Assembly (NCBI RefSeq): GCF_963676685.1
Contig: NC_092357.1
Location: 310,001 to 374,000 of the forward strand
Source of the DNA: Mytilus edulis
Lineage: Eukaryota
Reading direction: 5' to 3'
Length of the DNA stretch: 64,000 nucleotides
Position 1 is the first letter of the stretch. The number at the start of each line of letters is the position of its first letter. The position numbers and the translations under genes are program-made. Of this stretch, positions 18,797 to 48,073 are shown piece by piece. The notes under the pieces were generated by a model, which made no database searches, was not told where the DNA came from, and was given only the letters and a program-made list of their open reading frames with translations.

Positions 18797-20272
18797 GGCT
18801 GCAAATAAAATAGATAGTCATTTCATGTAGGTTGATATTGATTGATTATTTGGTGTTTAACGACAATTTCAGCACTACATAAAGCTGAGAAAGGAAATGG
18901 GGAATGTGTCAAAGACAGACTATTTCATGACTCTCAGTTATAGTAGATTGAGGAAGCCGGAGTGGTCGTAGAGAACCGCCCACCTTTGGCATGAATCGCT
19001 TTTGGATATAGGAATGAAATAAAACCATTAAATAATTGGAAATTAAATTTAGAGAAGCAAGAAAAGATCAGAAGAAGGGAACTTTGATAAAACAAATTTA
19101 TAAAATTTATTGTCAGTAACTTGATAAAGGAAATCAATGTTACATTACACTTGTAGTAGGAGGTATGTTCGAGTAATGAATGGATGTGTAGGGCGTTTAT
19201 GTTTATGTTTCTACTGTCAGATGATGACTCAGCTTTTGTCTCCAAAGGTTTGGAACCCTCAAATGACAGTGTTGTTCCAACCCCTGATGGGCATAATGGG
19301 AAAAGGAACGTGTGCAGGGAAGTCGCTGGTATCTGCACGGAGGCATTAGCCGTGCACGTTTGTGTTTGGTATATTTTAATAGAAAAGAAAGGATTAGAAG
19401 TATCATTCATGAAACGAAATCAGTATATATACACATAGAAAAACACAAAAATTGAAGGAACAGCGTTTGATGGTCATTTATCCCGCTGTCTAACATTTGA
19501 GCTGCTAATATTTATCATAAATATAATACAATGAACCTGCTGGCTAAGCTTTAAAACATCTTACCTTGTTCACTAACTAAGTTACCAACATACAAATATC
19601 AATAAAAGGAACCTCACTCCAGGTAAAATACATCATGCATAACACGTCCATATGTGTATATCATAATAATGCAGATATTATTGAATGTATTTAAATTACT
19701 TAATAAAATCGATCTTTGATTGGTTAATTATTTTGATTGATAATGTTAATTCTCTTTCAGTCACCAGCTAATAAGATAAAAAAAAAAAGTAGCAAAACCC
19801 AATACAATAGATCATTAAAAGCCTTGCCCTAAGAGGGAGCAAACACTGATAACTTGTGTATGTCTTAAGAATTGTTTTCAAGCCATATTTGCTTTTCAGA
19901 AATGAAGGATGAACAAAATAAAATAAAAATTGAGATCTTTTTGTCAGATCAAGAGCTGTTTTTATAAATACAGGTATATTTTAAGTTATTTTACAATTAG
20001 TAACATCAATTTTATGCCTGTAAAGGTTTGCGTGAATTAGATGTGGATACTAAAAAAATCCAAAAATTGTTTAAAGTTCATACAACCTAAGACTCTTTCA
20101 TCAAACATTTGACTTTTCTACACTTTACACAAGTATTCCCCATTTCAAACTAAAAGATAAATTGAGTTGGTTTTGCTATATATGTTTCATAAAAAATAAT
20201 GACCAACGTAGATACATGTATCTTGTCTTTTGGAGGGATTAATTCTACTTTGTTGTAACATCTCTTGTTTCC

Positions 20273-23200
20273 TATGCTGAGCCGGACTCAACTAGTTTAA
20301 CCACGTTACTGCAATCGCAATCTCGATGAATATATAAAGAACACAACTTGTTTTGAAAATTGTAATTAATATATTCCACCAGAAAGGTTTACATAGTAGT
20401 CAGTAGATTGGTAAACTGAAAGAAATAAAAATACAATATTTTACAATGTGTACGAATTAAATATGAACGTTAAATACAAGATTATTAATCGAGTCAAAAA
20501 CGAAAGTAGAATTTACAGTTCATTTCTCGGATATAAATAACTTACAGTTCGTATGTATTTATAAATCACTTATCCAAAAATAACGGAGTTAAACAGATTA
20601 ATTTATCAGTTTATGATTGAATCAAACGTACTCAGTTGACAGTGGTATGTCTCAATTTCCTCAGAAGGTAAAAAAAGTCGTCCATTTTCCATGTGTTGAA
20701 AAGTTGATGCGGACGGTGTCACAGAAATTAAAGGTAGTCTATAAATACGTTGATTTAAGAAATCGGTCCAGTTCAATTTGTTCCGGATAAATATGAAAAC
20801 ATGTAATAAACATTGAATGTGGAACAGAATACTCCTCGTCTGATGTCTTACTGATATCACTATTTCAAATATATCACACAATTGAATATCTGATTATATA
20901 AATCCAAAGTATCACTATAATATTAATTATACACAGTAATTCTCGATGAGAAGAATCATGTCCACGATTGGTCTTGTGTACACGGATGCTTTTCCATTTA
21001 CGACTACTCGTACTTCTACTTTCCGGACATGTTCGTCGGATCCTTTGAACGATTTTAATATAACTCCTATGGGCCATTGAGTGCGGCAAAGATTTTTGTC
21101 CTTTATGAGAATGACGTCTCCCGTGATAAGATCACGGCGATCGTTGGTCCATTTTCGTCGTGGTTGTAGTAACGGCAGGTACTCTTTTCTCCAACGGGAC
21201 CAGAAAACACTGGCCAGAGCCTGTACACGTCTCCATTCGGCTAGACATAGATCCCGTTTGTCGAATTCTCCAAGCTGATCTGAAGTGAAGATGTAATCGG
21301 TCTTTTGTGTCAATAACATAGCTGGTGTTAAGATTAGCAGATTCTCTGAATCTGTTGATACTGGTACCAGAGGTCTTGAATTGATTATTGCCGAAACTTC
21401 TGCCATGAACGTATTTAGCACGTCATGCGTTATATTCCTTCCAGCGGCGTTGATAAGCATAGAGTCGAGTATTCTCCTTGCTATACCAATCATTCTTTCC
21501 CAGGCTCCACCCATGTGGGAAGAATGTGGCGGATTGAAGATCCAAGTTGTACCAGAATTGTACAGAAAGTTCTTGAAGGGTCCATCTTCAACATTGATTG
21601 AGTCAATCTTTAAATCGTCGATTGCGCCAATAAAGTTTGTTCCACGGTCGGATCGGAAAATCTTAACTTGACCTCTTATAGCGGCGAATCTTCTGACGGC
21701 GTTAATGAAGGCTGAAGAGCTCATTTCCTCGATTAGTTCGATGTGAACAGCTCTAGTCACTAAGCATGTGAAAAGAATTGCCCAACGTTTTGAGTTTGCG
21801 TATCAACCACGTGTTTTACGTGAAACAATTTCCAGGGTCCAAATGTGTCTATTCCAACGTTGGTAAACGGAGGTGATGGTTCAAGACGGTCCTCTGGCAA
21901 ATCAGACATGATTTGACACTCAGTTTTTCCTCTTAGTTTGCGGCATGTCACACATTTGTGAATGAGAGAAGAGATCAAGCGCTTAGCTCCGACGATCCAG
22001 AATCCTGCGGATCGAATCGCTCCATCCGTGAAATGGCGACCTTGATGTTTTATCTTATCATGGTACAAATGTAGTGTCGGACTAATAATGTCGCTATATG
22101 ATGGCGTCCAGGGACGATCAATGGTTTCTTTTCACGGAGGTTTAAGTCAGATTTAGCAATACGGCCTCCTACTCGTAATAGTCCTCGTTCGTCCAAAAAC
22201 GGATTTAGGTTAGCTATCGGGCTCCGCTTATGAATTTGTTGCTGACGTTTAATGCAATCTATTTCATCTCCGTAAACTTCAAATTGAGCAGATATTAAGA
22301 TGAAATTTTCGGCATTCGAATTAAAAGCCTTCCAGAGAAGTCACTGGTGCTGCCTGTTTTGACCCGTGTAAACGGGAAAAACGTTCTAAAAAGGCTATCG
22401 CTCGCACAAGTGATGTCCAGTTGGAGAATCTGTTGAATCTATCAGTTCCGATATCTTTATGCTCAAGTGTGGCAAATGTTTTTGCAACATTAACAGTTGT
22501 ACGGATTTCTCCATCTTACTCTGGGTCTATTAGCTGATATATGTCCTTAGAATTCTTCTGTTCTGAGAAAAGAAGTTGTCTTGGTCCTAATAACCATTCA
22601 CTGTTATGAATTTCGTGAGCAGGTACGGACCTCGTTCCAGAATCTGCGGGATTACGGTTAGTTGGTACATAATTCCATTGACTTGGAGTGCTAAATTTCC
22701 TAATCTTCTCCACTCTATTAGCGACATAGATAAAGAACCTTCTTGTCTCGTTACTGATGTAACCTAAGACAACTTTACTGTCTGTGTAGAATTTCACGTT
22801 GTCTATGTGTAAATCTAAGTTATCCACAATGGTTTGTGTGATCTCAACTGCTAATACGGCAGCAGATAGTTCAAGTCGTGGAATAGTATGACCACTTGTT
22901 GGTGCGACTTTAACTTTCCCAAGAATAAAACCTATGTGTGGTTCACCACTACTGTCGATTGTGCTTAGATATGCAACAGCTGCTATGGCTTTTTCTGATG
23001 CATCAGAGAAGACATGTAACTCCTTTGTGGCGGTTTTGCTGAGATACGGCACGTAGGTACGTGGAATGCGCAATGTTTCGATAGCAATTAGAGTATCTCT
23101 CCAAGATTTCCACTCATCTGCTGTCTCATCAGTGAGAGGTTGGTCCCAATCGACGGTTTCTATAATATTTTCCTTAATAGGAGTTTCCCTTGTATAATCA

Positions 23201-24702
23201 CCGGAGCCAAAAAACCAAGAGGATCGTAGAGACTTTATCGTTGATAAAATTCCTCTCCGAATGATCGGTTTATTTTCTGATGATAATTGAAATAAGAAGT
23301 TGTCAGTGTTTACGTCCCAGCTGAGTCCAAGAATACGTTGTAGGGGGTTTACTGTCGGATTCTAAGTCTAGATCCTTTAGATTTGAAGCCAAATCATTGG
23401 CATGAAACGCAGACATAACTTCTGCACAATTAGAGGCGAACTTGTGAAGCCTTAAGTTTCCATACTTTGCTAATGCTTGTTGTGTGTCCTTCATGAGCTT
23501 AACAGCTTCCTCTTTTGTAGGACATGACGTAAGAACATCGTCGACATAGAAGTCTCTAGTAACAAAGCTAGTCGCGTGACTGCCAAACTCTTGTTCTGAT
23601 GCTTGAGCTGCTTTTCTGAGTCCAAGCGTAGCAACGACAGGTGACGGACTATTTCCGAAAACATGAACTCTCATGCGGTATTCGACAAGGTTCTCCTGTA
23701 GGTCATTGTTTTTATGCCATAAAAATCTCGGGTAATTTCGGTGGTCTTTTCTTACTACATAGCAGTGAAACATGTGTTTAACGTCTGCAGTTACTGCGAC
23801 CATTTCTTTCCTGAAACGCAGCAGTACTCCCAAGAGATCGTTGGTCAAGTTTGGACCTGTTAACAGGACACTGTTGAGTGAAACTCCGTTACATTTGGCG
23901 GAAGAATCAAACACACCCCTAATCTGATCGGGTTTCTTCGGATGATAAACACCAAACAATGGCAAATACCAGCGCTCTTCATGGTCGTCCAATGGTGGAG
24001 CGAGCTCTGCATGGTTATTGTCAAGGATCTTACTCATAAATGTAAGAAAGTGTTCCCGCTTTACTGGGTTTCTATTCAGACTAGTGTCTAACATATTAGC
24101 ACGATGTAGAGCTTGTTGTCTGTTGCTTGGCAACGACTGTCTTGGCACTCGGAACGGTAACGGTGCTACCCAACTTCCTTCCGAGTCTCTCACAAATTCG
24201 TTGTTTATTTGCTTCATGAACATTTTGTCCTCATATGACATTCCAGGCTTATCATCGTCCCTTGTTTTTTCAAAGAGTGGCGATTGTAAATCTTTCGTTA
24301 CAGGGTCCGTGTAATTTTCCCGAATGTCAAACTTGCTTGTGCATGGTTGAAAGTTTGACGGTTGTCCAGTAGGTAGAATGTTGGTTATTTTGACGTTTAA
24401 TTCAAAGGGTACGTGCTGCTTGTTAATGCAGGCCTCTCCTATCACTACCCAACCAAGTTTCAATTGTTGTGCATATGGAGTTCTGGGTGGTCCAATGCGC
24501 TGGTCAAGGACGTGGTGTGCCTCTATAAGGTCTCTGCCAATTAGGAGAAGAATTTGGCAATTTTCGTCTAATGGTAGAATGCTTCCTCTGAGTTCTTTTA
24601 GATGAGGGTGATGTATTGTGACTTCCGGAGTAGGAATTTCGTCCCTATTATTGGGAATATGATCACATTCTATCAAGACCGGCAGGTCAAATTTGTCACT
24701 AC
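20273..24702 (-). mobile_element. Degenerate BEL/Pao LTR retrotransposon (3' LTR 20273-20831 + pol remnant), same family as 55678-63586
   Basis: Minus-strand ORF pieces match the intact copy almost residue for residue (RT YVDD, Pao RNase H HVFSDASE, integrase). PPT GACGAGGAG precedes LTR start TATTCTG. Multiple stops and frameshifts. Confidence 0.95.
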
Positions 24703-25479
24703 CATTACACCCAATTTACAATAGCCTTGACAAATCTCACTACTAGTCTTGTTTGTAGTCTGTTCTACTGTCTTCTCTACTACTTGATGGTCTATTATTG
24801 TCCTTTGTACCCCAATGAATTCTTTAGTAGTTTATTTAGTAACGCTTCGAATATCGGGAAATTAGTTCGTTTGGTGTATATAGCTCATCAATTACTTGAT
24901 TACTCTTTGTTGCCTAATCTTCTTTGCTAATGGATCAAATGTTACTCTGAAGGCAAGTTTGTTTCGAGTATGAGTTGTATTTTTCGTTTAAATTGTTTCA
25001 CGTTTTGTCATGTCGGTCCTTTCTGACTGACTACAAGGTATCTGGTTTGCTAATTACTAGAACGGTATGAAAATATATATTTTACCCAACACATTGTAGA
25101 AAAAAGTATGCAAAAGTTAAAAGTAATGTTTGCACGTCAAAATCGTACAAAGTTGAAAATTAATTTCCCTAAGGAAAAAATCCACCTCCCTCAAAAAATA
25201 GCAACTGGTTGCTAACTGGAATATATAAGTAACCATAATCGGAAGGACAACAGTTTTTCTGATCCGCGAAAGATACCACACATACCGCAATACCGGTATG
25301 TAAAAAAAATTATGGCGAACGACGGACGGGTTATAGTAGACAATAAACCATATGTGCTAATTTCAAAATTCAAGAGTATAGACTTTCAAAATGAACTAAC
25401 ATATTCTAATTTCCATCGATATTGAGTTTTCATCAAGAAATAGACTAAGCTGCTTGGTTTTTTTTTATTTGTTGTTAGT

Positions 25480-25945
25480 GGCTTTGAACTGGCTGTCAGT
25501 AACTGTGAGTACTCACAGATCTGTACCTAGTGTCATTTTGTTGATAGGATATACAAGTATCCGGCCACGTTTACTCTGTGTAGCATTTTTCTTTGTATCC
25601 ATCTGATGAGTTGATCCTTTTTCACTTCATGTGTATTGTTCTTTCTAATGTTGTACCTTTACATCACTGTCCAAGGTTAGTGGGAGGATTGGGAGGCCGG
25701 TAACATGTTTAACCCTGCCACATTCTATATGAATGTGCCTGTCCCAAGTCAGGACCTTGTAATTCAGTGGTTGTCGTTTGTTGGTGTGTTATATATATTT
25801 GTTTTTGTTCATTTTTTATGCATAAATTAGGCCGTTAGTTTTCTCGTTTCAATTGATTTACTTTCGTATTTTCAGAGCCTTTTATAGCTGACTATGCAGT
25901 CTTGGCTTTGCTCATTGTTGAAGGCCGTACGGACGGTGACCTGTA
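25480..25945. repeat. Abundant interspersed repeat (CTTTGCTCATTGTTGAAGGCCGTACGG core); related fragments at ~24960-25050, ~49680-49740 (inverted), ~54140-54370, ~54520-54630
   Basis: The same core motif is seen several times within the window; family not assigned. Confidence 0.65.
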
Positions 25946-26787
25946 TATTCACACGGAAAACCATTTGTACATGTGATTCTTTTACGATTAAAGATCTTTT
26001 TTTTTTAAAGTGTAGTTTTTCTTATTCTTTTTCTTTCCCTTCCTCGTTCATTTATTAGGTTTTTGTTGGGGTGGAAATGAAAAGAAATGAGAAATAAGTT
26101 TTTGAATGTTGTATTTTAATTGATTTTGATATGGAAAGATAATTAGGCCATGTGCAAAAGGGTCATATTTACAGTTTTCTGAACATCTCTCGACTAGCTT
26201 GTCCATAAGGGTGAGGATGTGTATTGGCTAAATTCGTTAGACGGATTAGTTCAATCTTTCTGAATTTTGGATATATTTTTGGACTATAGTACTGTACACA
26301 ACACATTTGACAGGAAGACTTGGTACATTTTTAAGGTAGCACAAAAAAAAGATTTTTCATCCCCAATCAGACATCTTTAAACTGATGTAATTCCACTCAT
26401 CTTTCTTTAAATTTTATAAATGAGGTACCAAAAGAAAGAAGAAGGATTATTCTTTCAAATTGTGATAATTTCATTATGACATAATTATTACATAATCAAT
26501 TGTTATGTAATTAGTTGCCATTCTGTGATGTCCATACTTGAATGAATTAAGCTTCTTTGTTCTTCATAGCATCCTAAATTTTTTTTATAGATTCTTGCAC
26601 AACACAGTTTGACCTCCAAAACTCTGTCTCAGATTTTTCCTATTGTATTTCATTCTCTCATAAATCTTCAATGAAGTTTGCAACATCAATTCATTAGAGA
26701 TCACTAAGTTCAATTGAGTATAAAATTTGTTCTATTGATGATTTTGGAAATCTGAGACACAGTTTTGGAGGTAGCACAATACAAAGA

Positions 26788-27385
26788 TGGTATTCTATTT
26801 CTGATAGAATGTCAGATAGTTCATCAAGACGTGCGTTGTCCTTATTCGTCAAGGTTGGGAATTTGTCAAGTTTACTCCTGAGAGAGGCTTCCAACATTTC
26901 TGGAGCACCATACCGCTCGTCAAGCCTTTTCCATAATCTTTGTATACCTGTTGTAGGATTATTGGCGTTCGACGCTCTTATGCTTATGGCATGTTTAGCA
27001 GACTCTGGACCGAGCCACTTAATCAGTAAGTCGATCTGTTCTGAGTCAGAGACTTGTAACTCATCAGTCACGTTCTTGAAGCTTACTTTCCATGTATGGA
27101 AGGATTCTGCCCGATCGTTAAAGCTTGTTAATCGGGAGAAAAGCAGGTACTTACGTAAGAGAAATCTAGTTATCTCCGATGTGGGGTTGATTTGTTACTG
27201 GTGTGCAACAGGGATCTCTTCTTTAACACCATGTTTGTTGTGTTCAGCAGGGATCTCGTCTGAAAGGCTTAGTTTTTGTAAGCCGGTTACCATTCCCTGA
27301 TCTGGGATTAAGGTAACTTCTGGTGACTTAGTATCGGAAGGCAAGACAGCAGATGTCTGTGGCGGCAAGTTCAGTACCATGGATG
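26788..27385 (-). pseudogene. gag: BEL/Pao gag fragment belonging to the degenerate copy
   Basis: TDELQVSDSEQIDLLIKWLGPESAKHAI... matches ~57565-58243 of the intact element. Confidence 0.92.
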
Positions 27386-29200: not shown

Positions 29201-29681
29201 TTCCCAATGTCGTAATCACAATCACGTCAACTTTTCAAGAAAGTGACGTACCGTAAGAATGTGACCTACCGACTACCGTATGAGACTTGAGACCGGGTTT
29301 ATAAAAATATAAGCAACACGAGGGTTGCCACAAGTTTTTGGCGGGGTTCATGTTTCTTAGTATTTAGTTTTTTATGTTGTGATGTAAACTATTGTTTGTT
29401 CATTTGTTTGTTTTCTTTCTTTCTTAGCCACCCTTTGGTATCTTTTTGTCCCTCTTGTAGAAACATAAACAATGAAATACAACACCGTCAACATTTATTG
29501 TATACATGACATCAAGAATCACATATGAAGATAAGTGTCCTTACATGTGCCGAGCTTTAAATCTTAACTCTCACTGGACGAAGGTGTGTGTTTATACATA
29601 TCTAAATGGACGATCTCACGGCATTGTTTACCATAGGCTCAGCCCCCCTCCCTTTTTTCATGGGAAAAAAATTGGTTGATT

Positions 29682-29864
29682 TGTTATGTATTAGGGTTGA
29701 ATTCTGTTCGAGGTCGGGGCTATTCCAGGTAAGGGTGTAAGGTCAGACCCGTAATGCTGTTTTTGATGTTTCTTGAGTATTAGCGTGCTTATGGAGAATA
29801 AAGACGTGTTTGTAATGATGTCTTGTCCATTTATTTAGTCCCCGTAAAAGGCAAGAACATCTCA
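29682..29864 (+). repeat. 5' LTR of Gypsy-A
   Basis: TGTTATG...CATCTCA with internal AATAAA; direct repeat of 47894-48073. Confidence 0.95.
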
Positions 29865-30077
29865 TGGTGGAGGACTTCAAATGGATTAATTTGTTCTGTA
29901 AACCGCTTTTGACAATTTGTTTCAATTTTATACTGTGTAACTGAAATATTTTTGTGAATTACCACGAGGATCGATTTGCGTGCACTGAAGCGTGACACTA
30001 CATGTAGGCGGCAAGCACATGGTTTTTACACAGAGACAATTTTTATTTCCGTTGGTTGTTGAAATTTTTGTTCCCGA

Positions 30078-30815
30078 ATGAGTCTTATTTCTAAAGCCGA
30101 GAAAAATCTCACCAACTTAAGTCCGAGGTTAGAAAATGTGGGAACTTTGAAAAATATACCTGTCGTTTTATCTGACAGTAAGGGAAGGTATTTAAAGGAT
30201 CAGAATGTAGATAAACACCCTGAACGGAAAATTGTATGGTGGATACATCCCGGCACGACGGTACAACAGAATTCACAATGGTTGAAAGAAAAAGCTGTGA
30301 AGACATTTCAGGACGTAGGACAGATACACATTACTCTTTTTATATGGTTGGGCACCTGTGACTTAACATTCAAGACTGGTAAATATGTTTTTTTGAAATC
30401 ATCTGATTTTCAAGTGGTAACAGATCTTTGCCAGGATTTTCGGGATATCTACACCTTTATACACCAGTTCCCAACAGTGCGACTTATTTTTCTTCAAGTT
30501 CCGTTTTATTCTATTTACTGGTGGAACAAGTTTCATAACCACCCTGACCCCGACCAGTTCTTAAAGAAGGACGATATTCTACATGAGCAGATATTAGAAG
30601 TGAATAAGTACATCATCACTTTAAACGAATTTTTAGGACAAAACTCACCGGATTTCAATTTGGACATTTTGGCATCCAGAAAGCGGCACTACGATCTGCA
30701 AACGAGTTATAGTACATCTTTCGCTCTGTACTTGGATGGGATTCATCCGTCACCTACACTAGCGAAGCTTTGGCTTCTCAGACTTTGTTTAAGGCTTAAT
30801 AAAGATTGTAATTAA
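30078..30815 (+). CDS. Extra ORF of Gypsy-A: SGNH/GDSL hydrolase (esterase)-like protein, 245 aa
   Basis: Block I-like VVLSDS(34)KG, block II-like HPG, block III-like WLGTCD(95)L and block V D(220)GIH(223)P, in the correct order and spacing. The ORF is intact and intronless, between the PBS and gag. Confidence 0.78.
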   Translation: MSLISKAEKNLTNLSPRLENVGTLKNIPVVLSDSKGRYLKDQNVDKHPERKIVWWIHPGTTVQQNSQWLKEKAVKTFQDVGQIHITLFIWLGTCDLTFKTGKYVFLKSSDFQVVTDLCQDFRDIYTFIHQFPTVRLIFLQVPFYSIYWWNKFHNHPDPDQFLKKDDILHEQILEVNKYIITLNEFLGQNSPDFNLDILASRKRHYDLQTSYSTSFALYLDGIHPSPTLAKLWLLRLCLRLNKDCN

Positions 30816-31143
30816 AACATTTACCTCACTGATTAGTATGTTTTTCACAGATTTTCAGTTTTGTATGTGAGAATTTATCTCGCTGCTCTTTGTATTGATA
30901 CTTGAACATGGTTGTATGTATAGTGGTTCAGTGTATGTGAGAATTAACTCGCTGCACAAGGCATTAAACAAAGCGTAATACATTTAGACTGAAGTATACA
31001 TATAAAAGTCATTCTAGCTCGCTAGACCCACAACTGTTGATTTTTGCTCTTTATATTAAAATGGCATCTTATGAATGTGTATGTGAGAATTTACTCGCTA
31101 CATGTATAGGGTAATCCTGATCGTTGGTAACATAATTTTGTAA

Positions 31144-32367
31144 ATGACTTCAAATCAACTCTCGGCAAATTTTTCTGATGACGAGTACAACAGTGAGGTC
31201 GAATTTGGATTGATATCAATTAAGTCGCCTGAAACCCCACTACTGCCTTTACCCGTTTCTGTATCACCATTGTCCCAGTACTCTGACGATTCCCTAGAAT
31301 TTGAACTTGTACAACCACACTCTATTCTATCAGACGAATTTTTGTCGCTAAATCAGCTTCGGGAGCCAGATATTAATTATTTACTTACTCCGTCCCCAAA
31401 ACTACCTTTGAACTTTTCAACATGTAATTCAAATCTTGCCATTTCAGACACGATGGAAAAACTAGCAAACTGTCGGAAATTTGGCGGCTATCCCCATGAA
31501 AATGCTGCATTATTTATTGCTGAGTTTGAATCATATGCAACCCTACATAACATCTCACCACTGGACGACAACCGAATAATAGCGGCGCTACATTTACATT
31601 TTACTGGTCCAGCATTAACCTGGTTTAATTCACTATCGTCTGAAAATATGGCATCATGGGAAGCTATAGTACATTTGTTCACAGACAAATATGTTGATTT
31701 AGACTGGCAAAATCCTACAGTTATGCTTGATAGTGAAATCTTTGAAAACATGTCTTTATCGTCAGGCCAGTCAATTGATGATTTTTATTGCCAACTTGTG
31801 GAAAAAGCAAATACATTGAAAAAACCTGATCACGAAATTTTAGTTAAATTCATTAAAGGGTTACCCGAACAACTAGCATTTTTTGTAAGAGCCGGTCACC
31901 ATAGAGACAGTCCATCGGCATTAGCAGCCGCTAAAATGGGCGAAGCTTATGGGTATAGGAAGGCTGAGCTACAAGTAGCTGCGGCAAGTAAACAGGCAAA
32001 ACCTAGTGATAAACGTGACTCCGAGTTCGCCTCCTTACAGTCACAAATAGACACTCTTACTAAGGCAGTCCAAAATTTAACTACATCTAAAACTGATGAA
32101 AGTACAAAACAAAACAGACATACCGATCGATTTGCTTATAGTCGTCAGCAGGCAACTTACCCCCCACAGGCAACAAACAGTCGTCACCAGGCAACCTATC
32201 TCCCTCAGGCAACAAACAATCTTTGTTTCAATTGTAATTCGCCAAATCATATTAAACGTTATTGCAACTGGAACGGACAAGGAGTTAGCAGTTCCGATAT
32301 CACATGTCAGTTGTGTGACCAAATTGGTCATTTAGCGGTTAATTGTAAGAGACTTTTGGGAAACTGA
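31144..32367 (+). CDS. gag: Gag of Gypsy-A (capsid-like domain + two CCHC zinc knuckles); the true start may be the ATG at 31452
   Basis: LHFTGPALTWF capsid-like motif; CFNCNSPNHIKRYC and CQLCDQIGHLAVNC knuckles. Confidence 0.9.
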   Translation: MTSNQLSANFSDDEYNSEVEFGLISIKSPETPLLPLPVSVSPLSQYSDDSLEFELVQPHSILSDEFLSLNQLREPDINYLLTPSPKLPLNFSTCNSNLAISDTMEKLANCRKFGGYPHENAALFIAEFESYATLHNISPLDDNRIIAALHLHFTGPALTWFNSLSSENMASWEAIVHLFTDKYVDLDWQNPTVMLDSEIFENMSLSSGQSIDDFYCQLVEKANTLKKPDHEILVKFIKGLPEQLAFFVRAGHHRDSPSALAAAKMGEAYGYRKAELQVAAASKQAKPSDKRDSEFASLQSQIDTLTKAVQNLTTSKTDESTKQNRHTDRFAYSRQQATYPPQATNSRHQATYLPQATNNLCFNCNSPNHIKRYCNWNGQGVSSSDITCQLCDQIGHLAVNCKRLLGN

Positions 32368-32409
32368 ACAGTCCCGGAGGACACCAGGCACGGTCTTTCG
32401 GGAGGACTG
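32358..32409 (+). promoter_or_regulatory. Programmed -1 ribosomal frameshift signal (G GGA AAC + downstream hairpin) joining gag to pol
   Basis: Heptamer GGGAAAC at 32358-32364 lies directly before the gag stop. Hairpin CAGTCC...GGACTG at 32369-32409 has inner stem CGGAGGAC/GTCTTTCG. The -1 frame is open from the heptamer into the pol ORF. Confidence 0.8.
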
Positions 32410-35400
32410 ATATAGGTGCCAAATGTCGTAGTCGTTCGCCTTCTAGGTCATTTATTAACACTGTTCAATCTGAACATTTTCAAACTTCCGATGATGAAAT
32501 GCAGTGTTCTACATCAAATATGGAAAGCCGGAATAAGTTTATTTATTTGCCTGTACAGATTTTGAATTTGAAAATTGCAGCCCTAGTAGATACGGGAAGC
32601 TCAATAAATGTAATTTCACAACAATTATTTAATTCAATACCTGAAACTCACAAGTCATGGGTAAATTCAACTAGTGAGAAAATTGTTTTAGCTAATAACC
32701 AATCTGTTAACATTATTGGTGTTTCACGAATTAAAATACAAATTCCACAAGGAAAACATTGGATTTTAGTACATGTATTTTCACAAACATCACATCCGTT
32801 ATTATTAGGCACAGACTATTTGGTCTCGAAGAAAATTATGCTAGATTTTTCAAAGTTGACCGTATGTTCCCGTTTCTGTAAAGTGAAAAATCAAAAGCGT
32901 TTGTCAGTTTTGCCAAATTCTGAGATGATAGTATGGGGCAAAGTTCATAATGATATTTTACATGGTATGCAAGGAATATGCACGAACCATAATTATTTGT
33001 TTAAATTGGGTGTTTTGACAGCGAAATCGGTAGTTTCTGTAAATAAAGATAAACTGGTGCCTGTCAAACTGTTTAATTCTACAAATGAAATAGTTGATAT
33101 TCCAAGGGGTCAGATTGTTGCGAAATTTGAGATACTTGACAATGACTCTGATTTAATAGCTACATGTATAGGAAATAGAGAAAATCCAGAGGTTAATAAT
33201 GTACAGTTTTCGACCGAAAAGTGTGAAGATGGGGAACTTAGTGGGACAAAAATTTTCTCCTATTTTGATATTCCAAAACATTTATCTGAGTCTGAACAAG
33301 GACAATTGAAAGGGTTTTTAAAATCGCATGACAACATATTTGTAACAGATGAAAATCCTGCTTTAGGTTTCACGGACGTAGTGCAACACAAGATTATACT
33401 AAAACCGGATTTCAAGCCAAAATATCAGCGATCGTATCGCCTTACCCCAGATAAAAAACAAGTACTTCGGGATCATCTCGATCATTTGCTAAAACAAGGA
33501 ATAATTTCCCCGGTTGGTGAAACCGAAGATATACCCATCACAAGTCCCATAGTGTTAGTTTCAAAAAGAGCCAAGGAGTCCCGAAATAGCCAAAATAGCG
33601 ATTTCAATCAGTCTTCAAACAGTCTCTCTCAGTTCAGATTTTGTTGCGATTTCCGTTATTTAAATTCTCAGTCTCAGCAGTTTTTTTATGGACTACCAGA
33701 ATTACAGGATTTAACAGAGTCTTTCTCAAACAGGACCCCGAATTTCATAACTCATATCGATTTAAGTTCAGGATTTTTTCAGATGCCTATATCTCCAGAC
33801 AGCCAACGATATACCGCATTCAACACTTGTTACGGTACATATAAATTTCTCCGCCTACCAATGGGTTTAAGTTCATCGCCAGGATCATTTCAACTTTTAA
33901 TGGACAAAGTGCTCCATGGGTTAACATTCAATTCATGTCTGTGTTATTTAGATGACGTTTTAATAACATCAGAAACCTTTGAGCAACACCTTAGTGATTT
34001 ACATGAGGTATTTAATCGTTTACAAGCCGCTGGCCTAAAATTGGGCCCTAAGAAATGTCATTTTGCACAGAAATCTTGTTTGTTTCTTGGCCACCTTATT
34101 TCTAAAGACGGTATACAACCACCGCCTGATCGAATTACAGCAGTTCAAGAATATCCGTCACCCCGATCAGTACGTGAACTTCGCCGTGCACTAGGTCTGT
34201 TGAACTGGTTCAAGAAATTTATTCCAAATTTTAGCGCTGAAATAGAACCTCTAACCAAACTTCTTCGGAAAAACGCCAAATTTCGTTGGACATCAGAACA
34301 AGAAAATGCATTTACCAAGTTGAAATCTTTATTGACAAATTCTCCGATCTTAGCATTTCCAAATTTTCATACTGAGTTTTATTTAGCAGTGGATACCAGT
34401 TCTAAAGGTATAGGATACATGTTGTACCAGTATCAGGAGACAGCTAGCGATAGTAAGGATGTCAGTGTAATTCGTTTTGGTTCTAAGTCATTAAGCAAAT
34501 GGCAAAGATCGTACGGACCTACAAAATTAGAATTACTAGGGATGGTAACAGCTATTTTAGATTGTGCAATGTATTTGAGGGGTCGTAAATTTATTGTCGA
34601 GTGCGACCACCAGGCCCTTCGGCCTATATTTCAAAAACAACTTAAAGGGGCCATATATGAACGCTGGGTAGCAATATTGCAACAGTTCAATTTTGAACTA
34701 CGATATAAACCGGCAAAAGATATGCAGGTTGCAGACGCTTTATCTCGGTCAACTCGATTGACAAGTTGTGAAGGTATGATAGTCCTGATCAAGAGGACCC
34801 ATTTTTTCCGTACGTTCCCGAACATGTTGGTGATATACAATTTGAAGGAAAGCGTGTTAAATTTCCGAAATTTATGGATTCTGAAAGTACTGATTTTCAA
34901 GAACACAATCTTCCGGAAGTTAACAACGTAATGCAAAGTCACGACTCCATTAGGAATTTAAAACATTTTAAGCGCAGTAAACAATTTCAAAACAAACAAT
35001 TAGATTTTGGATATGACGCTGATACAGAAGATTACGATGTAGCAAATCAAACAATTTCCAAAATAAAAAGTCAGTTACCAGATTACATAAAATATTCACG
35101 GACAAATGTGACTCTGAAGACCGTAATATAACAGCAGATACAGGAAACCGTGATATACCGGAAACTTCATCTCAAAATATTGACACTGAAAATCAGTCAG
35201 AATCAGTCGATCACAAAACAAGTGCTAAAAATCAGGATACAGAAATTTCTACGGAAAAGGAAGATCATTCAAATTTTACAACGTTAAATACCGATGGTGA
35301 CGAAACCCAAACTAATCTTAGTACAGAAACGGCTACAAGTGAGAACAATACGCAAGTTAAATTCACTGATTCAATTGAAATTTTTAGACATGGTGATTTT

Positions 35401-37141
35401 AGTAAGGACACTTTTCAAAAACTGCAAGTGCGGGACCCATACGTTGGACCTTTTATATCATATTTTGAACAGAATAAATTACCGTCTTCACAGAAAGCTG
35501 CTAGAAAACTTCTACTCGAAACTCCAAATTATGACATGGTGGATGGATTGCTTTTTCATACTCGTACAGCAAAGTATAAAACGGACAAAACTTTTCACTT
35601 CGTATCAACTAGCATTACCAGAGGTCGCTATTAAAACCGTTCTTCGATTGTACCATGACTCACCGTTAGGTGGACACGGTGGCATTCAACATACAGCGGA
35701 CATGTTAAAAGAACATTATTATTTTCCGAAATTATTACAGAGTGTGACGGATTATGTTAGAAGTTGTCACGATTGTCAGAGCCGAAAAGTTACTCAAGTT
35801 AAAACAAAAGCCGGTATCGTCGCTTTTAAGACACCTGAAGCGCCTTTTCAGGTTTGGCAAATGGACCTATACGGACCTGTACCAGTGTCAGCAAAAGGAA
35901 ACTCTTATATATTTACAGCCGTCGATGCGTTCACAAAATTTTTAGTTGCAGAGCCTATACCAAACAAAGATGCGTTGACAGTTGCGGAAGTCTTGTTTAA
36001 ACTTGTATCTCAATATGGGGTTTGCGATACTCTGATCAGTGACAGTGGTTCGGAAGCCACCGCTCGTGCAATTAAGGAAGTGTGTCGATTACTGGAGATA
36101 AATCAGCAATTCACACCGAGTTTTACTCACCACTGTCTTGGTTTGTGTGAAAGAACGCATAGAACGTTTGCAGAACGCATGACGCCTTACATTCAACAGG
36201 GAAAACATTGGGAGGATATGGTACCATCTATTTTATTTTCATTAAATTCAACTGCCAATGACAGTGTAAAATATTCACCTTTTGAAATTCTTTACGGCAG
36301 TCGTCCTAAATTTCCTTTGTCGGGACACGTTCGTGATTTGAATTTAGCGTCAATCCCAAAAGATTATCATGACTATCTTAAACAATTTTCCGAAAGATTA
36401 GATATTATTCGGAATGAAGTAAAGGATCACGCACTAAAGTCGCAAACAGCAATGATGGAACGCGCTAATCAAAAAGTTCATAACTTAACATTAAGACTTG
36501 GCGACTTTGTATACATGAGTAAAGACCCGACAGGTGCAGGACATAAATTTAAATTCAAATTTGCAGGACCATATGTTGTTGAAAATTGTGAAAGTCCACA
36601 CTTATATACATTAAAAGACCAGACTACATCTAAAATTTTCCCGTCAATCCATATTAACAGACTAAAGCCGGCATATGTTCGCAAACCTAATCAATGTAAC
36701 TATTTCATGGATCCAGTTATTACAAATGTCAATCAGTTCACAGTAGAACACGATTTACTATCAGATGAACATTCGGAACACAGTGAGAACGATAGTCCAT
36801 GCAATGATCTTGTTTCATCCGAAAATAAATTATCCAATGTCCCGGATGTAATCACATCAGGAAATAATTTACCCGTGCGACGTTCTAAAAGGACACACAG
36901 AAAACCCATGCGGTTCCGAGACACTAATTTTATGACACCTGAATCGTTCACAGATAGTCATATCAAAGAGAATGTTAAAATCAAACGTATACTAGCTTGT
37001 AAAATAGTGAACGGAACACATAAATATTTAGTTCATCTTTGTGGCGAACCTGCACAGAACGCACGTTGGATGGATATTTCTGATCTCAACGTTAAAGCCA
37101 AAGAGATTATTAGTAAAAGGCCCCCGCCTATAATAAATTAA
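32358..37141 (+). pseudogene. pol: Pol of Gypsy-A: protease, RT, RNase H, acidic spacer, integrase, chromodomain-like tail; ~3 frameshifts (~34775, ~35070, ~35575)
   Basis: LVDTGSS, YLDD, LAVDTS...CDHQAL...ADALSR, HHCC (YHDSPLGGH...CHDC), and the integrase core (MDLYG, SDSG, GLCER). Domain order PR-RT-RH-IN is the Gypsy order. Confidence 0.92.
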
Positions 37142-38101
37142 GTGTATTATAGCTTGGGCGTGTGGAAATTATTCCGCCGCTTACAATGATATAAATGATC
37201 AAAGTAGCCTCTGCTCGTAACTGCATAAGCGTGTGGGATTTTCACTGCCGCTAATTCATAAGTTTCCAGAGATAAAGTTTGCGTAACAAAGTAATGTAAG
37301 AAAAAGAAAAGAAAAGAATCACCAGCATCATCTCTGTTGCACCTGATATTTGTGTGAGGGTTATCTCGCCGTCATTCGTATTCTTGTATAGATGTCCAAC
37401 AATTTGAAAACTTTGAACTGTTAATTGAGTCACTTTATTAATGCTAATCGTTTGTTCAAATTTATTGCATTTCATTATATTTTTGGTTGACTTGGAATAG
37501 CCCATTTTTTTTAATAAGTGTGCATAAATTCATTCAAGATTTGCATATCAGTTTTCACTATTTGCACATAACTGATTTTCATCAAATTTGTTCATGATAA
37601 CGGAAATCATTTGATAGCGTGTACATTTGATACAGTAGAATGAATGTTCATGTGGAATATTGTCAGTAGCGGTGTGATAGAAATCATAAACTGCCGTTTT
37701 AAGAGGTGTTGCTTTTCTGAAACATGTTTCATTAACTATAAATACGGATCCACGAGTCTGTGAGAGAGAGTAGGGGGGTGGGGTATGAGAGTGTGAGAGA
37801 AACAGTTATGGTGGATGAAACCTATTGTGGAAAGCTCATTTTCAATAAGAGGTAGCGGTCTCTGTTGGTTCCTTATCGATGTAAACAGCTACAGTCATGA
37901 CAACATTGTTTCACTTATATATATATATATATATATATCAAACGTCTGAATAATAGTCAACGATTTTTCCCACGTGGGAGCTGGATCGTTACAAGTAACG
38001 ATACATGTACACAATAAAATAAATTATATAAACGTCTAAAAAGTGTACATAACAACACCAATGATATAAAAAGGAACTATAAATGTAATTATTTATAAAT
38101 A

Positions 38102-38128
38102 TTTCGGATAACAGATATCCTTCGTCAG
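38102..38128 (-). ncRNA. Hammerhead-like core in the PLE pseudo-LTR (second copy 41709-41735)
   Basis: Minus strand CUGACGA-A-GGAUA-UCUGU-UAUCC-GAAA. Stem II is clear, but stems I and III were not resolved by eye. Confidence 0.5.
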
Positions 38129-38622
38129 TCAGATTCTGATGTTAAATGAATCATCTTTAAGTCTTCTTAGATTAAACTTTTACTAAATCTTGAAATTTAT
38201 ACAATAAAAAAGGCAAACCGAACATCAGTTAAGACGCTTGCACCATTCTAAAAATTTGTTGAATATGACATAGGTTATATGACTAATTACATCAGAGAGT
38301 TCACATATATGCTTTAAATAAAAATAATAATGTGCGATGTGAACTAGCACAATTTTAAAGCTTTAACGGTGTCGATATTATGATGTTACAAGAAAGATTG
38401 CGTCAATAAGAATTCCAAATAAACAGCACTGAACGGTCTAAATTTCTAAATATTTCAGATTTGACAACTGTAGTGTAGTTACATTAGAGTCTGCGATGTT
38501 TAAAACAAACGGCCGTTAAAATATAATAACAAATTTTGACTAAAGTAAAATAGTTGGACGTGGCTTGGTACTTATACATCCCTCAAAAAATTAAGCAATT
38601 TAATTTGTTATATTCAACAGAT

Positions 38623-41463
38623 TTATTTTAGAGATGAGTAAGGTAAAGAAATAGAAACGGAGACTGTAATAATAAGTAATATAACCCAGATGTGAAGCAC
38701 TGCATGGTGTCGAACTACATTTATCCCATTTGGTGCCAAAGTTGTTAATTTTCTAATCCAAAATCTTTCCCGAGTAAGTCTATCCTCCCTAGACCAAGCA
38801 GAGTTGTGGTCAATGATAGTAATGGTCAGTCGATTGAGATCTGCCTTAGTGTGGCCAGGGGATCTCAAATGTCGACTAAGAGGGAGGTCTGGCTTGCATT
38901 GGTAGTCGCTACGATGACCGTTCATTCGTTTGTGAAACGGCTGTTCTGACTCGCCTACATACTGTTTACTACATTTACACTGTAGGAGATACACAACATT
39001 TGTAGTCTTGCAATTAACATTGCAAAATATGGTGTATTCTGTACCAGTGGAGTGACTGTTAAAAGTCTGGGTATCCAGTATTTGTTTGCAAGTCAGACAT
39101 CGTTTGTTTCCACAACCCTTACAAGAGCCCACCGACGAAGAGCCTGCTTGAGAGGATAACTCAGCTCTCACCAGCAAGTCTTTAAGGCTTTTGGGCCTGC
39201 GGAAAGCCAGTACAGGTGGCTCGGGAAAGATCTTGGATAGTTTAGGATGTTTTTCGATATCTTTCCAACTTTCGCGGATAAGGTGAGACAAGTTGTCAAA
39301 TTTTGGATTGTAAGTCAACACAAAAGGCACCCTCCTGTTGACCTTTTTGACTTTATATTGTAAAAGTTCATCTCGGCTGATGTTGCTAGCACGAGAAAAA
39401 CCTTTATCAATGTCTTTCCTTTTGTAGCCTCGATGTTTTAGGTGACCGCGAAGTTCTTGTAGTCGTTTTTTGGCAACATCGTTGGTGGAGCAAATCCTTT
39501 TTATTCGTATGGCCTGGCTGTAGGGAATGCTCTTGGTGCAATGTTTAGGGTGACAACTTGAAGGAGACAGATATTGATGTTTGTCTGTGGGCTTGCAATA
39601 CAGATCTGTAAATATGTTTCCATCCCTCACTTGCGTTGTAGTGTCAAGAAATGTGATCTTAGAGTCAGAGATTTCATATGTGAATTTTATTGAGGGATGG
39701 GCATCGTTGGCATGTTGAATAAACAAATCTAGTGCTTGTTCAGTATTATCCCACTTCATGTCAATATCGTCAATAAATCGGAACCAAGAGAGGGGTTGAT
39801 AAAGATAAGAATTGAGAATTCTCTGTTCTAATTTCCCCATAAAAATATTGGCATAAGACGGGGCCATCTTTGTTCCCATTGCTGTTCCATTAACTTGGAG
39901 AAAGTGTTCACCATTGAATGTGAAGTTATTGCATTTTAAAACCAAAGTTAGAAGCTGGATGAGACATTCAGTTGGTGGATGTAAGGTGTTATGAGAGTTC
40001 CAGACTTCCCTACAGGCTTCAATACCATCATCATGGGGGATATTAGTATAGAGGGAGGTAACATCAAGCGAGACAAGGATCGTTTCAGGTGGGAGAGGGT
40101 TCAAAGATTCCATTTTTTTAAGATAATGTGTTGTGTCTTGTATATATGATGGTAAATTTTCTACGTGTGGTCGGAGATGAAAGTCAATAAATTCTGATAT
40201 TTTCTCTGTAGGGTGGTCATTGGCGGAAACAATTGGTCTACCTGGATTATTGACTTTATGTATTTTGGGCAGAAGATAGAAACGCCCCGGCTTTGATTTT
40301 TCCGGTTTTAGATATTTAAATGTGGTTTCATCAATATGTCCCTGTTCACACATGTTTTTCAGGTTTGTGGTGATCTCTTTGTTAAATTGAGGGGTGGGGT
40401 CAGAGTCTAATTTCTTATAGAATCTCTCATCAGAGAGTTGACGTTCCGCCTCTTGAATGTAGTCACATCTGTCCATGACGACAACAGCGCTACCTTTATC
40501 TGCTGGTTTAATTATAATGTCGTCTCTGTTTTTAAGTAACCGCACAGCTTCGTTTTCTTCAGAAGATAAATTGTTGAATGTTTGGGAAGTAGCAGTGGAC
40601 AGATGTGTTACGTCGGATTTAATTTTGTCAATAATATGTTCTAAAGTAGCACATTTACTGGGTTTAGGAATCCATGAACTTTTTTTCCTGAATCTGGGAA
40701 TATCGACATCTTCTTGGTCGTCATCTGAGTCGAGATCACTTGTGTCACTATCAGTGGAACTTTTTGTGGTGTCCTTAGAAAAATATTCCTTGATTCTGAG
40801 GGATCTTGCTAACTTGTCTAGGTCATCTTCCAAAAGTATAGAATCTATTTTGCCCGGCGTGGGGCAAAAATTAAGACCTTTTGACAGTACCTTAGTTTCG
40901 GTCTCCGACAAAGCTACTGAAGACAAATTGACTACAGTGTTTGTAGAGTTCATGCAGCCTTGTTTTTTTCTCTTGAATCGGCGATTCCGGGATTTTTTTC
41001 CGGTTATGATGGTACGATTGAGAGTTAAGGTGGTCTGCTCTCTAACAACAGTGTCTAAAAGTACGCCGTCTCGTTTAAATTTATTAACTTGTTTTTTGTG
41101 TAATTTCCGGGATTCAATGCGCAAGATGTCATGGAGGCGCTCGTTGATGGTGAGCAATTCAGGACCGGAAAGTTCTTGGCATGCTTTATTGTAAAGATGG
41201 TTATAACTAGTTTGTAAATTTAAATGTTTATGAGACGCCTCAGCGTGTAATAGATCCATCAATTTCACGGAACTACTGTGGAGAATATTATTCCATCTAT
41301 CCATAAATCTGATAGATTTTTCACCGGTGGTAAGGGGCGAGGCTTTCAAAATAAGCCCAATCGGAACGATACCCTGAGATAGATAAGTTTTTAAATTTGA
41401 TACATGATGTTCGGTTTTAACTATTTTAAGACTCAAAGCTCTAAGCTTTTTAAAAAAAGACAT
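38623..41463 (-). CDS. PLE reverse transcriptase - Cys-rich linker - GIY-YIG endonuclease, 946 aa, intact
   Basis: KPADKG, LDVTSLYT, GTAMG and RFIDD RT motifs; CKGCGNKRCLTC linker; VVYLLQC...YVGES...R...ERFWI...PNGIN endonuclease. Confidence 0.95.
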   Translation of the reverse strand: MSFFKKLRALSLKIVKTEHHVSNLKTYLSQGIVPIGLILKASPLTTGEKSIRFMDRWNNILHSSSVKLMDLLHAEASHKHLNLQTSYNHLYNKACQELSGPELLTINERLHDILRIESRKLHKKQVNKFKRDGVLLDTVVREQTTLTLNRTIITGKKSRNRRFKRKKQGCMNSTNTVVNLSSVALSETETKVLSKGLNFCPTPGKIDSILLEDDLDKLARSLRIKEYFSKDTTKSSTDSDTSDLDSDDDQEDVDIPRFRKKSSWIPKPSKCATLEHIIDKIKSDVTHLSTATSQTFNNLSSEENEAVRLLKNRDDIIIKPADKGSAVVVMDRCDYIQEAERQLSDERFYKKLDSDPTPQFNKEITTNLKNMCEQGHIDETTFKYLKPEKSKPGRFYLLPKIHKVNNPGRPIVSANDHPTEKISEFIDFHLRPHVENLPSYIQDTTHYLKKMESLNPLPPETILVSLDVTSLYTNIPHDDGIEACREVWNSHNTLHPPTECLIQLLTLVLKCNNFTFNGEHFLQVNGTAMGTKMAPSYANIFMGKLEQRILNSYLYQPLSWFRFIDDIDMKWDNTEQALDLFIQHANDAHPSIKFTYEISDSKITFLDTTTQVRDGNIFTDLYCKPTDKHQYLSPSSCHPKHCTKSIPYSQAIRIKRICSTNDVAKKRLQELRGHLKHRGYKRKDIDKGFSRASNISRDELLQYKVKKVNRRVPFVLTYNPKFDNLSHLIRESWKDIEKHPKLSKIFPEPPVLAFRRPKSLKDLLVRAELSSQAGSSSVGSCKGCGNKRCLTCKQILDTQTFNSHSTGTEYTIFCNVNCKTTNVVYLLQCKCSKQYVGESEQPFHKRMNGHRSDYQCKPDLPLSRHLRSPGHTKADLNRLTITIIDHNSAWSREDRLTRERFWIRKLTTLAPNGINVVRHHAVLHIWVILLIITVSVSISLPYSSLK

Positions 41464-41988
41464 AGTTTGCCTGATGGTAAGGCTGTAAGAAAAATCGGAT
41501 CGCGAGATAAATCACTCGATACAGACTAAGAATAAAAATATATATCAAACGTCTGAATAATAGTCAACGATTTTTCCCACGTGGGAGCTGGATCGTTACA
41601 AGTAACGATACATGTACACAATAAAATAAATTATATAAACGTCTAAAAAGTGTACATAACAACACCAATGATATAAAAAGGAACTATAAATATAATTATT
41701 TATAAATATTTCGGATAACAGATATCCTTCGTCAGTCAGATTCTGATGTTAAATGAATCATCTTTAAGTCTTCTTAGATTAAACTTTTACTAAATCTTGA
41801 AATTTATACAATAAAAAAGGCAAACCGAACATCAGTTAAGACGCTTGCACCATTCTAAAAATTTGTTGAATATGACATAGGTTATATGCTATTTTACAAA
41901 AAAAATTGTATTGTGATTTCATAACGTTATCAAATTTTACTATCTAGCATATGAGTAAGATGTGAGATTGTAGAGCAAAGAGTTGAAA

Positions 41989-47747: not shown

Positions 47748-47893
47748 AAACGTATTTCAATAAGATTTTTGCATATGGAGTCGTATTGTACTGAAGATTG
47801 TTTTTTTATAAATTGATATTTACATAGTATTATGGTTTGAACTGAATTCAACCTGTGGAAAAAAATTATCCAAATTTTTGCTAAGCGGGGGGA

Positions 47894-48073
47894 TGTTATG
47901 TATTAGGGTTGAATTCTGTTCGAGGTCGGGGCTATTCCAGGTAAGGGTGTAAGGTCAGACCCGTAATGCTGTTTTTGATGTTTCTTGAGTATGAGAGTGC
48001 TTATGGAGAATAAAGACGTGTTTGTAATGTCTTGTCCATTTATTTAGTCCCCGTAAAAGGCAAGAACATCTCA
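47894..48073 (+). repeat. 3' LTR of Gypsy-A
   Basis: Direct repeat of 29682-29864, preceded by the PPT and followed by TSD GATT. Confidence 0.95.

Follow-up and report, generated by a model that had tools for sequence, protein, structure and literature searches.

Within the window, the whole 64,000-nt stretch of Mytilus edulis DNA analysed here, lies an LTR retrotransposon, Gypsy-A, in which a gene for an SGNH-fold hydrolase stands ahead of gag. The element and the inserts that it has received are laid out as follows:

29678–29681, strand not applicable: 5' target site duplication (TSD) GATT, the same 4 bp being found again at 48074–48077
29682–29864, + strand: 5' LTR of Gypsy-A, TG...CA, 183 nt, 97.3% identical to 47894–48073
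29865–29873, + strand: putative PBS-like sequence TGGTGGAGG, abutting the 5' LTR (sequence inspection)
30078–30815, + strand: stand-alone SGNH-fold hydrolase ORF, 245 aa, with S34, G59, C94 (in place of Asn), D220 and H223 (ORF call, predicted fold, family alignment)
31144–32367, + strand: gag, with Retrotrans_gag, two CCHC-type knuckle stretches and an acidic Ser/Pro-rich N-terminal extension (ORF call, Pfam)
32349–37141, + strand: pol, PR-RT-RNase H-integrase, in the −1 frame relative to gag, which it overlaps, and containing three frame changes (ORF call, Pfam)
36977–37111, + strand: integrase C-terminus, weakly chromodomain-like (Pfam Chromo E 0.002–0.003, 18 bits against a cut-off of 25)
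37925–41888, − strand: nested insert, an RT-encoding element with 357-nt direct repeats (Pfam, self-BLAST)
41973–47747, + strand: nested insert, a second LTR-type element with ~198-nt direct repeats (Pfam, self-BLAST)
47883–47893, + strand: polypurine tract of Gypsy-A (sequence inspection)
47894–48073, + strand: 3' LTR of Gypsy-A (self-BLAST)
48074–48077, strand not applicable: 3' TSD GATT (sequence inspection)

Gypsy-A carries the marks of a Ty3/Gypsy element, namely a TG...CA LTR pair, a short TSD, a PBS-like site and a polypurine tract, and Pfam gives the coding order gag, then PR-RT-RH-IN. No dUTPase family was detected in its pol (Pfam, E≤0.1). An earlier note on this DNA had placed an intact 245-aa ORF between PBS and gag, inside the LTR and TSD boundaries, and the LTRs at 29682–29864 and 47894–48073 with their flanking GATT confirm that placement. 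The two LTRs differ by two substitutions and one 3-nt gap (97.3% identity over 183 nt, self-BLAST). A repeat finder run on 28–39 kb alone did not return the pair, because the 3' LTR has been displaced to 47894–48073 by the two nested elements. As these occupy the 3' region of Gypsy-A, the element spans 18,392 nt, or ~8,650 nt once both are subtracted. The nested element on the − strand has a 962-codon ORF and its insertion point is a TA run; judging by its motifs, we take it to be a Penelope-like element with a GIY-YIG-like tail, for which Pfam makes no call. The one on the + strand encodes RT, RNase H and a weak integrase zinc finger, and its pol is divergent (RT 29% identical to that of Gypsy-A). 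Its first ORF, of 384 codons, has no Pfam match, and it contains no SGNH ORF.

Several other elements and genes share the window. A BEL/Pao element at 55678–63591 (+) consists of a single 2,185-codon ORF between 558-nt LTRs that are 99.8% identical, and a decayed, inverted relative of it (~92% identical) lies at ~20268–27385 (−). Positions 1–12100 are made of a tandem unit of ~2.7 kb with a 34-nt minisatellite, together with an RT fragment at 6211–6963 (−). A B-box/NHL (TRIM-like) ORF of 570 codons (51963–53675, +) and an Ulp1-like protease fragment (15519–16052, −) were also observed.

The pol of Gypsy-A is split into four ORF pieces by three frame changes, from ~34,770 to ~35,630, in agreement with the about three frameshifts counted previously. 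A long low-complexity stretch at 34772–35634 (+), between RNase H and integrase, takes in all three. The earlier note had set the open SGNH ORF against the broken pol, and this argument does not hold: given pol's rate of three breaks in 4.8 kb, an ORF of 738 nt would stay open by chance with P=0.63. An intact ORF in one copy is thus uninformative. Gene capture is common in retroelements, and the SGNH ORF could have been a one-off passenger, either a host gene or a piece of another element, inserted into the 5' leader and without a role there; the comparison with a second element, given below, bears on this directly. In gag, a second AUG was observed after the acidic Ser/Pro-rich extension of 103 codons (31144–31452, +). 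The extension is 70% identical over 79 aa to a gene model of a sister family, and it is possible that Gypsy-A Gag has two alternative starts.

The SGNH ORF itself runs on the + strand from an ATG at 30078 to a stop codon ending at 30815 (738 nt, 245 aa). Its motifs D33-S34, G59, G92-T93-C94-D95 and D220-G221-I222-H223 stand in SGNH block order, as had been noticed from the sequence. The protein has no Pfam match at E≤0.1 and its best match among PDB sequences has an E of only 0.39, and family profiles gave no signal against PDB sequences either. Consequently, the SGNH assignment rests on the fold and on the relatives of the protein. An AlphaFold2 model was built on an alignment (A1) of the query and 27 of the 28 homologues from a first search, leaving out the chimeric P0023, and reached a pLDDT of 91.3 and a pTM of 0.88. 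The predicted fold is flavodoxin-like, α/β/α with a central parallel sheet, as in the SGNH superfamily, and the block II residue G59 comes after strand 53–56. The leading structural matches of this predicted model are all SGNH/GDSL proteins (Foldseek E 2.6e-7). The best is a bacterial GDSL lipase (Z 17.1, rmsd 2.8 Å, 177 residues aligned), followed among others by PAF-acetylhydrolase (Z 16.2) and, below many active esterases, the OSK domain of Oskar (Z 14.6, rmsd 2.6 Å, 164 residues aligned). These proteins are alike in fold (Z 14.6–17.1) but are products of cellular genes with 12–15% identity, and OSK lacks the nucleophile. In BFVD only phage and giant-virus SGNH domains were matched, at 9–16% identity. 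Neither the domain-swapped ZfL2-1 structure (PDB 4C1B) nor the viral haemagglutinin-esterases are among the structural matches listed (best 50), which we do not take against kinship. The protein is mildly basic (pI 8.8, net +4) and its predicted helix at residues 3–18 has a hydrophobic moment of 0.59. A six-frame profile scan of the window found no second copy of the SGNH domain at E<0.07.

A first homologue search recognised 28 relatives among 209 candidates, 30–97% identical to the query; the best named ones are Mytilus coruscus gene models, one of them 91–94% identical in its best stretches. A family profile was then matched to 1.84 billion representatives of clusters at 50% identity, and it retrieved 1,716 at E≤0.001, 832 at 1e-10 and 276 at 1e-30; we examined the best 150 of the 1,716, whose weak tail may include other SGNH families. 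At the top of the ESM Atlas ranking, which we count as one source of evidence, stand three unnamed clusters whose commonest recorded taxa are Mollusca and Annelida, and the next ranks are held by clusters with GDSL families on 22–33% of their members. Pfam GDSL recognises 6 of the 28 first relatives at E≤0.1 and 11 of 135 family members at E≤0.01. No match was obtained in 50,697 phage and 72,556 plasmid records.

The family alignment has 174 rows (the window protein, that of the second element and 172 further proteins, with two chimeras omitted) and a median pairwise identity of 31%. Of the 150 rows spanning all three positions, 143 have the full Ser-Asp-His triad. Residue by residue the conservation is 149/165 for D33 and 161/164 for S34 in block I, 154/167 for G59 in block II, and 156/160 for D220 and 157/160 for H223 in the Asp-x-x-His of block V. 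At the block III position there is Cys (C94) in 168/174 rows and Asn in 6/174. The earlier reading of the single protein, that the triad is retained and the block III Asn replaced by Cys, therefore holds throughout the family. Lys follows the catalytic Ser (K35) in 157/164 rows, and position 90 is Trp in 157/174 and His in 1/174. Since the oxyanion Asn is described as an invariant residue in the available text of PMC10792757, and Cys stands there in 168/174 rows, we file the 245-aa protein as an SGNH-fold variant and not as a canonical SGNH member.

In size and composition the members are uniform. A length of 225–275 aa in a single domain was found in 143/174 proteins. Among these 143 full-length members, 135 have a pI of at least 8.5, two have a 19-residue stretch with hydrophobicity of at least 1.8, two have a hydrophobic N-terminus and none starts with Met-Gly. 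The K/R fraction is 0.33 around residues 196–210, a basic hairpin of the protein, and 0.23 in residues 1–15. Judged from these sequences, the family so appears to be a large and old one of soluble, basic, single-domain proteins with an active site under selection. A short acidic tail after the last helix was observed in P0094, P0128, P0136 and P0161, with a similar 'DIL-I-V...EL' pattern, possibly an interaction motif of one subgroup.

Further information came from a search in which one peptide pattern was run against 185,579 prokaryotic genomes. It gave two loci (L001/L002), both on contig JBEVXV010000340.1, a 20,462-nt sequence filed under a Sedimenticola MAG. The contig consists of an intact Gypsy element, whose LTR may be ~2.4 kb long, repeated head to tail almost perfectly with a period of 10,804 nt. 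A prokaryotic home of the hydrolase was therefore rejected, since the single matching contig is a Gypsy element; from its content, the contig is probably mis-binned animal DNA, a host contamination. The element contains, in this order, a 239-aa homologue of the hydrolase, a PNMA-type gag and a 1,535-codon pol with the domain order PR-RT-RH-IN, as in Gypsy-A. The two elements are 34% identical in the hydrolase, 38% in RT, 35% in RNase H and 29% in integrase, with gag similarity undetectable by BLAST and no match at the DNA level. Of the 75 residues identical between both hydrolases, 50 have different codons, and the differences by codon position are 0.56/0.40/0.72. These codon differences show selection on the SGNH gene, as does the conservation of the family. 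In a FastTree phylogeny of the 174 rows, with a root by midpoint only and moderate deep supports, this root separates the hydrolase of Gypsy-A from that of the second element.

Chimeric gene models give further hints of the same neighbourhood. Thirteen extra segments of at least 25 aa occur in 12 of the 174 proteins: three match Gypsy gag/pol in sense, one in antisense, and nine match neither element. In P0029, a close copy, the domain is followed by a sense match to Gypsy-A gag/pol. P0023 has the domain in front of Gypsy sequence of a sister family (hydrolase 65%, gag 70%), and in P0093 the hydrolase is 36% identical and a downstream pol piece 34% (E 7e-24). P0002 carries an antisense match to the gag-pol junction, and P0151, among the nine segments that match neither element, joins the domain to a PHD finger region. 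We regard such fused models as predictor artefacts that would report the neighbourhood of the gene and not real proteins.

The earlier note had proposed an accessory gene, and its recurrence, as a 34%-identical homologue at the same place of a second element and in the models P0029, P0023 and P0093, bears that proposal out. The SGNH gene is not a one-off. It recurs ahead of gag, with a genomic context known or hinted for a handful of members only. A passenger without role, for which gene capture and the uninformative single copy could be cited, has become very improbable and is largely refuted: the gene keeps its place in the second element, whose RT is 38% identical, and in gene models of a sister family, and the 50/75 different codons, the codon-position differences and the missing DNA-level match speak against it as well. 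We thus conclude, with a probability of about 0.9, that Gypsy-A carries a conserved Ty3/Gypsy accessory gene, situated between PBS and gag and encoding a single-domain SGNH fold in which the Ser-His-Asp triad is intact and the active-site rim is peculiar to the family, with Cys replacing the oxyanion Asn and Lys following the catalytic Ser.

It is a separate matter whether the position 5' of gag is the only home of the family. It might also be a mobile cassette common to several kinds of retroelement (Gypsy, LINE, Penelope-like), which would be compatible with any mechanism of action. Such sharing is documented for other esterases in the available text of PMC5408684, P0151 has the domain fused to a region with a PHD finger, and the context is known for very few of the 1,716 clusters. 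However, 143/174 proteins are single-domain ORFs of 225–275 aa, unlike the LINE ORF1 fusions, both contexts known at the DNA level are Gypsy elements from opposite sides of the tree, and searches for longer fused forms returned one protein, a Gypsy fusion, which is weak evidence. We consider the cassette unlikely.

Another repeated feature of Gypsy-A is a bulged RNA hairpin, recognised by pattern and covariation:

30858–30890, + strand: copy 1, in the spacer between the SGNH ORF and gag
30928–30959, + strand: copy 2, in the same spacer
31074–31105, + strand: copy 3, in the same spacer
37153–37184, 37224–37255 and 37345–37376, + strand: three copies directly 3' of the pol stop

The hairpin has a U bulge, an upper stem starting GUG and a loop mostly starting AAUU, with compensatory changes among copies. 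A strict pattern, defined post hoc from the repeats themselves, has 4 + strand occurrences in the entire window, each of them in one of the six copies, and 0 on the − strand; 0 of 2,000 shuffles reached 4. In the copies, which are related to each other, as has to be considered in reading these statistics, 50 of 54 cells are paired and two-sided changes affect 4 of 9 pairs. The pairing or covariation score was reached by 0 of 500 shuffles, the two-sided count by 29/500 and the pair-type count by 458/500. No Rfam family matches the hairpins. They could possibly act as a packaging, stability or translation signal. A model of the hairpin did not find it in the second element (best E 4.1), which gives no sign that it accompanies the hydrolase.

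Six covarying hairpins just 3' of the SGNH and pol stops invite a comparison with OSK, whose fold is shared (Z 14.6) and which binds RNA (available text of PMC10792757 and PMC8662646). A protein working in this way would bind its own element RNA, possibly at the six hairpins, and control gag translation, RNA stability or packaging, and the basic character of the family with its K/R-rich hairpin would fit. Nevertheless, OSK has lost the catalytic Ser, as described in PMC10792757, in contrast to the triad kept in 143/150 rows; it stands below many active esterases in the structural ranking; the second element has no hairpin copy (best E 4.1); and, according to the available text of PMC3905857, the ZfL2-1 esterase on its own showed no binding to oligo-A RNA. 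An OSK-like regulator of this kind is quite unlikely in our estimation.

The position of the hydrolase also raises the question of how gag is reached. Eight AUGs lie ahead of gag within the SGNH ORF and ten in the spacer, and each of the three spacer hairpins contains an AUG-stop. With that many AUGs leaky scanning to gag is unlikely, and splicing, internal entry or re-initiation would be needed. A spliced gag message was considered because position 29729 is donor-like and position 31447 is acceptor-like, the latter preceding a good-context AUG at 31453 by six bases, and the second element also has an acceptor-like site ahead of gag. This evidence is weak and was set aside, since splice-like sites are no rarer there than background (acceptor-like sites in pol, 2.2 per kb). 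Elements of the MDG1 group, as far as described in the available text of 10.1101/2025.03.14.642691, have two ORFs upstream of gag and one unspliced RNA running from LTR to LTR, and so an ORF-before-gag arrangement is workable without splicing.

Esterases have been described in several other retroelements, and the absence of a precedent in Gypsy elements that the earlier note implied is not supported. In the available text of PMC5408684, the Gypsy-like Vesta1 LTR elements of bdelloid rotifers have a separate GDSL/SGNH ORF3 downstream of pol, and esterases are mentioned for Neptune Penelope-like elements of fish and molluscs; the reviews PMC6431247 and PMC5718144, in the text available, repeat these Vesta and Neptune statements. 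Vesta1 resembles Gypsy-A as an LTR element of Gypsy order with a separate SGNH-type ORF, of putative function, without transmembrane segments. It was described as replacing env, a likeness that we also draw for the Gypsy-A ORF. However, the Vesta1 ORF lies 3' of pol, is ~1.3 kb long and keeps all of S/G/N/H, whereas that of Gypsy-A lies 5' of gag, has 738 nt and has Cys for Asn. Vesta1 pol contains a dUTPase between PR and RT and Gypsy-A pol none at E≤0.1; the two are set apart here by description and not by sequence. Amphibian Ngaro tyrosine-recombinase retrotransposons likewise have an extra SGNH ORF of putative function in a gag-RT/RH retroelement (available text of 10.1101/2021.08.05.455354), but it comes after the recombinase and in another class of element, again compared by description.

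LINE ORF1 esterases (CR1/L2/RTEX, with ZfL2-1) share with the Gypsy-A ORF a basic SGNH domain, the triad and a position upstream of the polymerase gene. They differ in that the esterase is built into ORF1p, where it follows a coiled coil and substitutes for Gag, whereas Gypsy-A has a free ORF besides Gag. Their signature His (H191, four residues before the block III Asn) corresponds to Trp W90, and the gate Ile to Lys, a mapping derived from residue numbers in the available text of PMC3905857. As for accessory ORFs, sORF1 and sORF2 of MDG1/412 also lie upstream of gag in env-less Gypsy elements, and sORF2 enables cell-to-cell spread (10.1101/2025.03.14.642691, text available in part). By that account, sORF2 is a myristoylated, transmembrane, FAST-like protein of 63–107 aa, in contrast to the 245-aa soluble enzyme fold of Gypsy-A, which has no transmembrane stretch and belongs to a family with an MG start in 0/143.

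Our literature searches, run outside Repbase, Dfam, GyDB and subscription journals, turned up, among the papers listed, no SGNH gene 5' of gag and no account of the hydrolase family. A look-up of the term 'esterase' did not find it in the available text of the mollusc, bivalve, annelid and metazoan surveys PMC6238403, PMC10294476, PMC8220671 and PMC13524379, and found it in that of PMC9025612 in a reference title only. A Repbase entry may well note a SGNH ORF of the Gypsy-A type. Gypsy-type elements that carry an SGNH gene of their own are thus already known, and it is the 5' position and the hydrolase family that look undescribed. The Gypsy-A gene is one that resembles the retroelement esterases, differs from both the LINE and the Vesta types and lacks the canonical Asn.

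How the protein might act can be proposed from its sequence and by analogy. We lean, somewhat short of even odds, towards a soluble, basic and active acyl-hydrolase that would bind anionic membranes and help particle assembly or traffic. Translation at the 5' end of the element RNA would yield a soluble hydrolase in the cytosol, which would dock on negatively charged membranes via its basic surface and N-terminal amphipathic helix and cleave, with low turnover, an acyl ester of a lipid or of an acylated membrane component. Cleavage might give an env-less element a membrane platform or a release step for particle assembly or traffic, a role likened to that proposed for the ZfL2-1 LINE esterase. 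We favour catalysis because the triad is kept, and anionic membranes because the charge, the basic hairpin 196–210 and the amphipathic first helix fit. We also favour this reading because ZfL2-1, the one studied retroelement esterase, behaves in such a way: it has a pI of 10.8, is weakly active and binds anionic phospholipids and liposomes (available text of PMC3905857). The analogy is a loose one, since the signature His is Trp in 157/174 rows and no fused ORF1 part ties the protein to RNA or particle, and the basic surface is equally well compatible with RNA binding. Also to be weighed against the membrane reading are the mild basicity of the window protein and its missing oxyanion Asn. A conserved and specific interface with Gag is made less likely by the comparison of the two elements, whose hydrolases are 34% identical and whose gags have no detectable similarity.

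That same discrepancy is what a target in the host would predict, as the gene is common to elements whose Gags are unrelated by BLAST. The hydrolase could strip acyl or acetyl groups from a host protein, lipid messenger or glycan and blunt silencing or innate defence, with no role in the particle. Its stand-alone gene, its first-translated position and its conserved triad would suit this, acetyl esterases and PAF-acetylhydrolase are among its structural neighbours, and deacetylation and de-palmitoylation are listed as options for LINE esterases in the available text of PMC3905857. On the other hand, the ZfL2-1 esterase, which belongs to a different family, had no histone-peptide deacetylase activity according to the same text, and the N-terminus is not signal peptide-like, so that extracellular glycans are unlikely targets. 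We hold a deacylase directed at the host to be rather unlikely. It is tempting to go further than membrane-aided assembly and to see here a fourth gene, of ancient date, in the Gypsy elements of marine invertebrates, which hundreds to more than 1,000 families across distant lineages would share. Acting on membranes in place of env, a lipid hydrolase whose active site is a new Cys/Lys variant would allow particles that lack env to pass through membranes into germ cells or from animal to animal. This is a speculative and doubtful proposal at present.

SGNH esterases are now found in LINEs, Penelope-like elements, Ngaro, rotifer Vesta and elements of the Gypsy-A type, and in none of them has a role in transposition been demonstrated. 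The conserved change of Asn to Cys with a neighbouring Lys provides a natural variant of the SGNH oxyanion hole. As the family is mostly invisible to Pfam (11/135 at E≤0.01), element annotation misses it, and gene prediction merges it into spurious host genes. It is a very large family of small (~240 aa), single-domain and predicted soluble proteins, encoded by a separate gene beside an ordinary gag-pol. Such a protein can be assayed alone, and the question of why retroelements carry lipases thereby becomes more testable than with the LINE ORF1 fusions.
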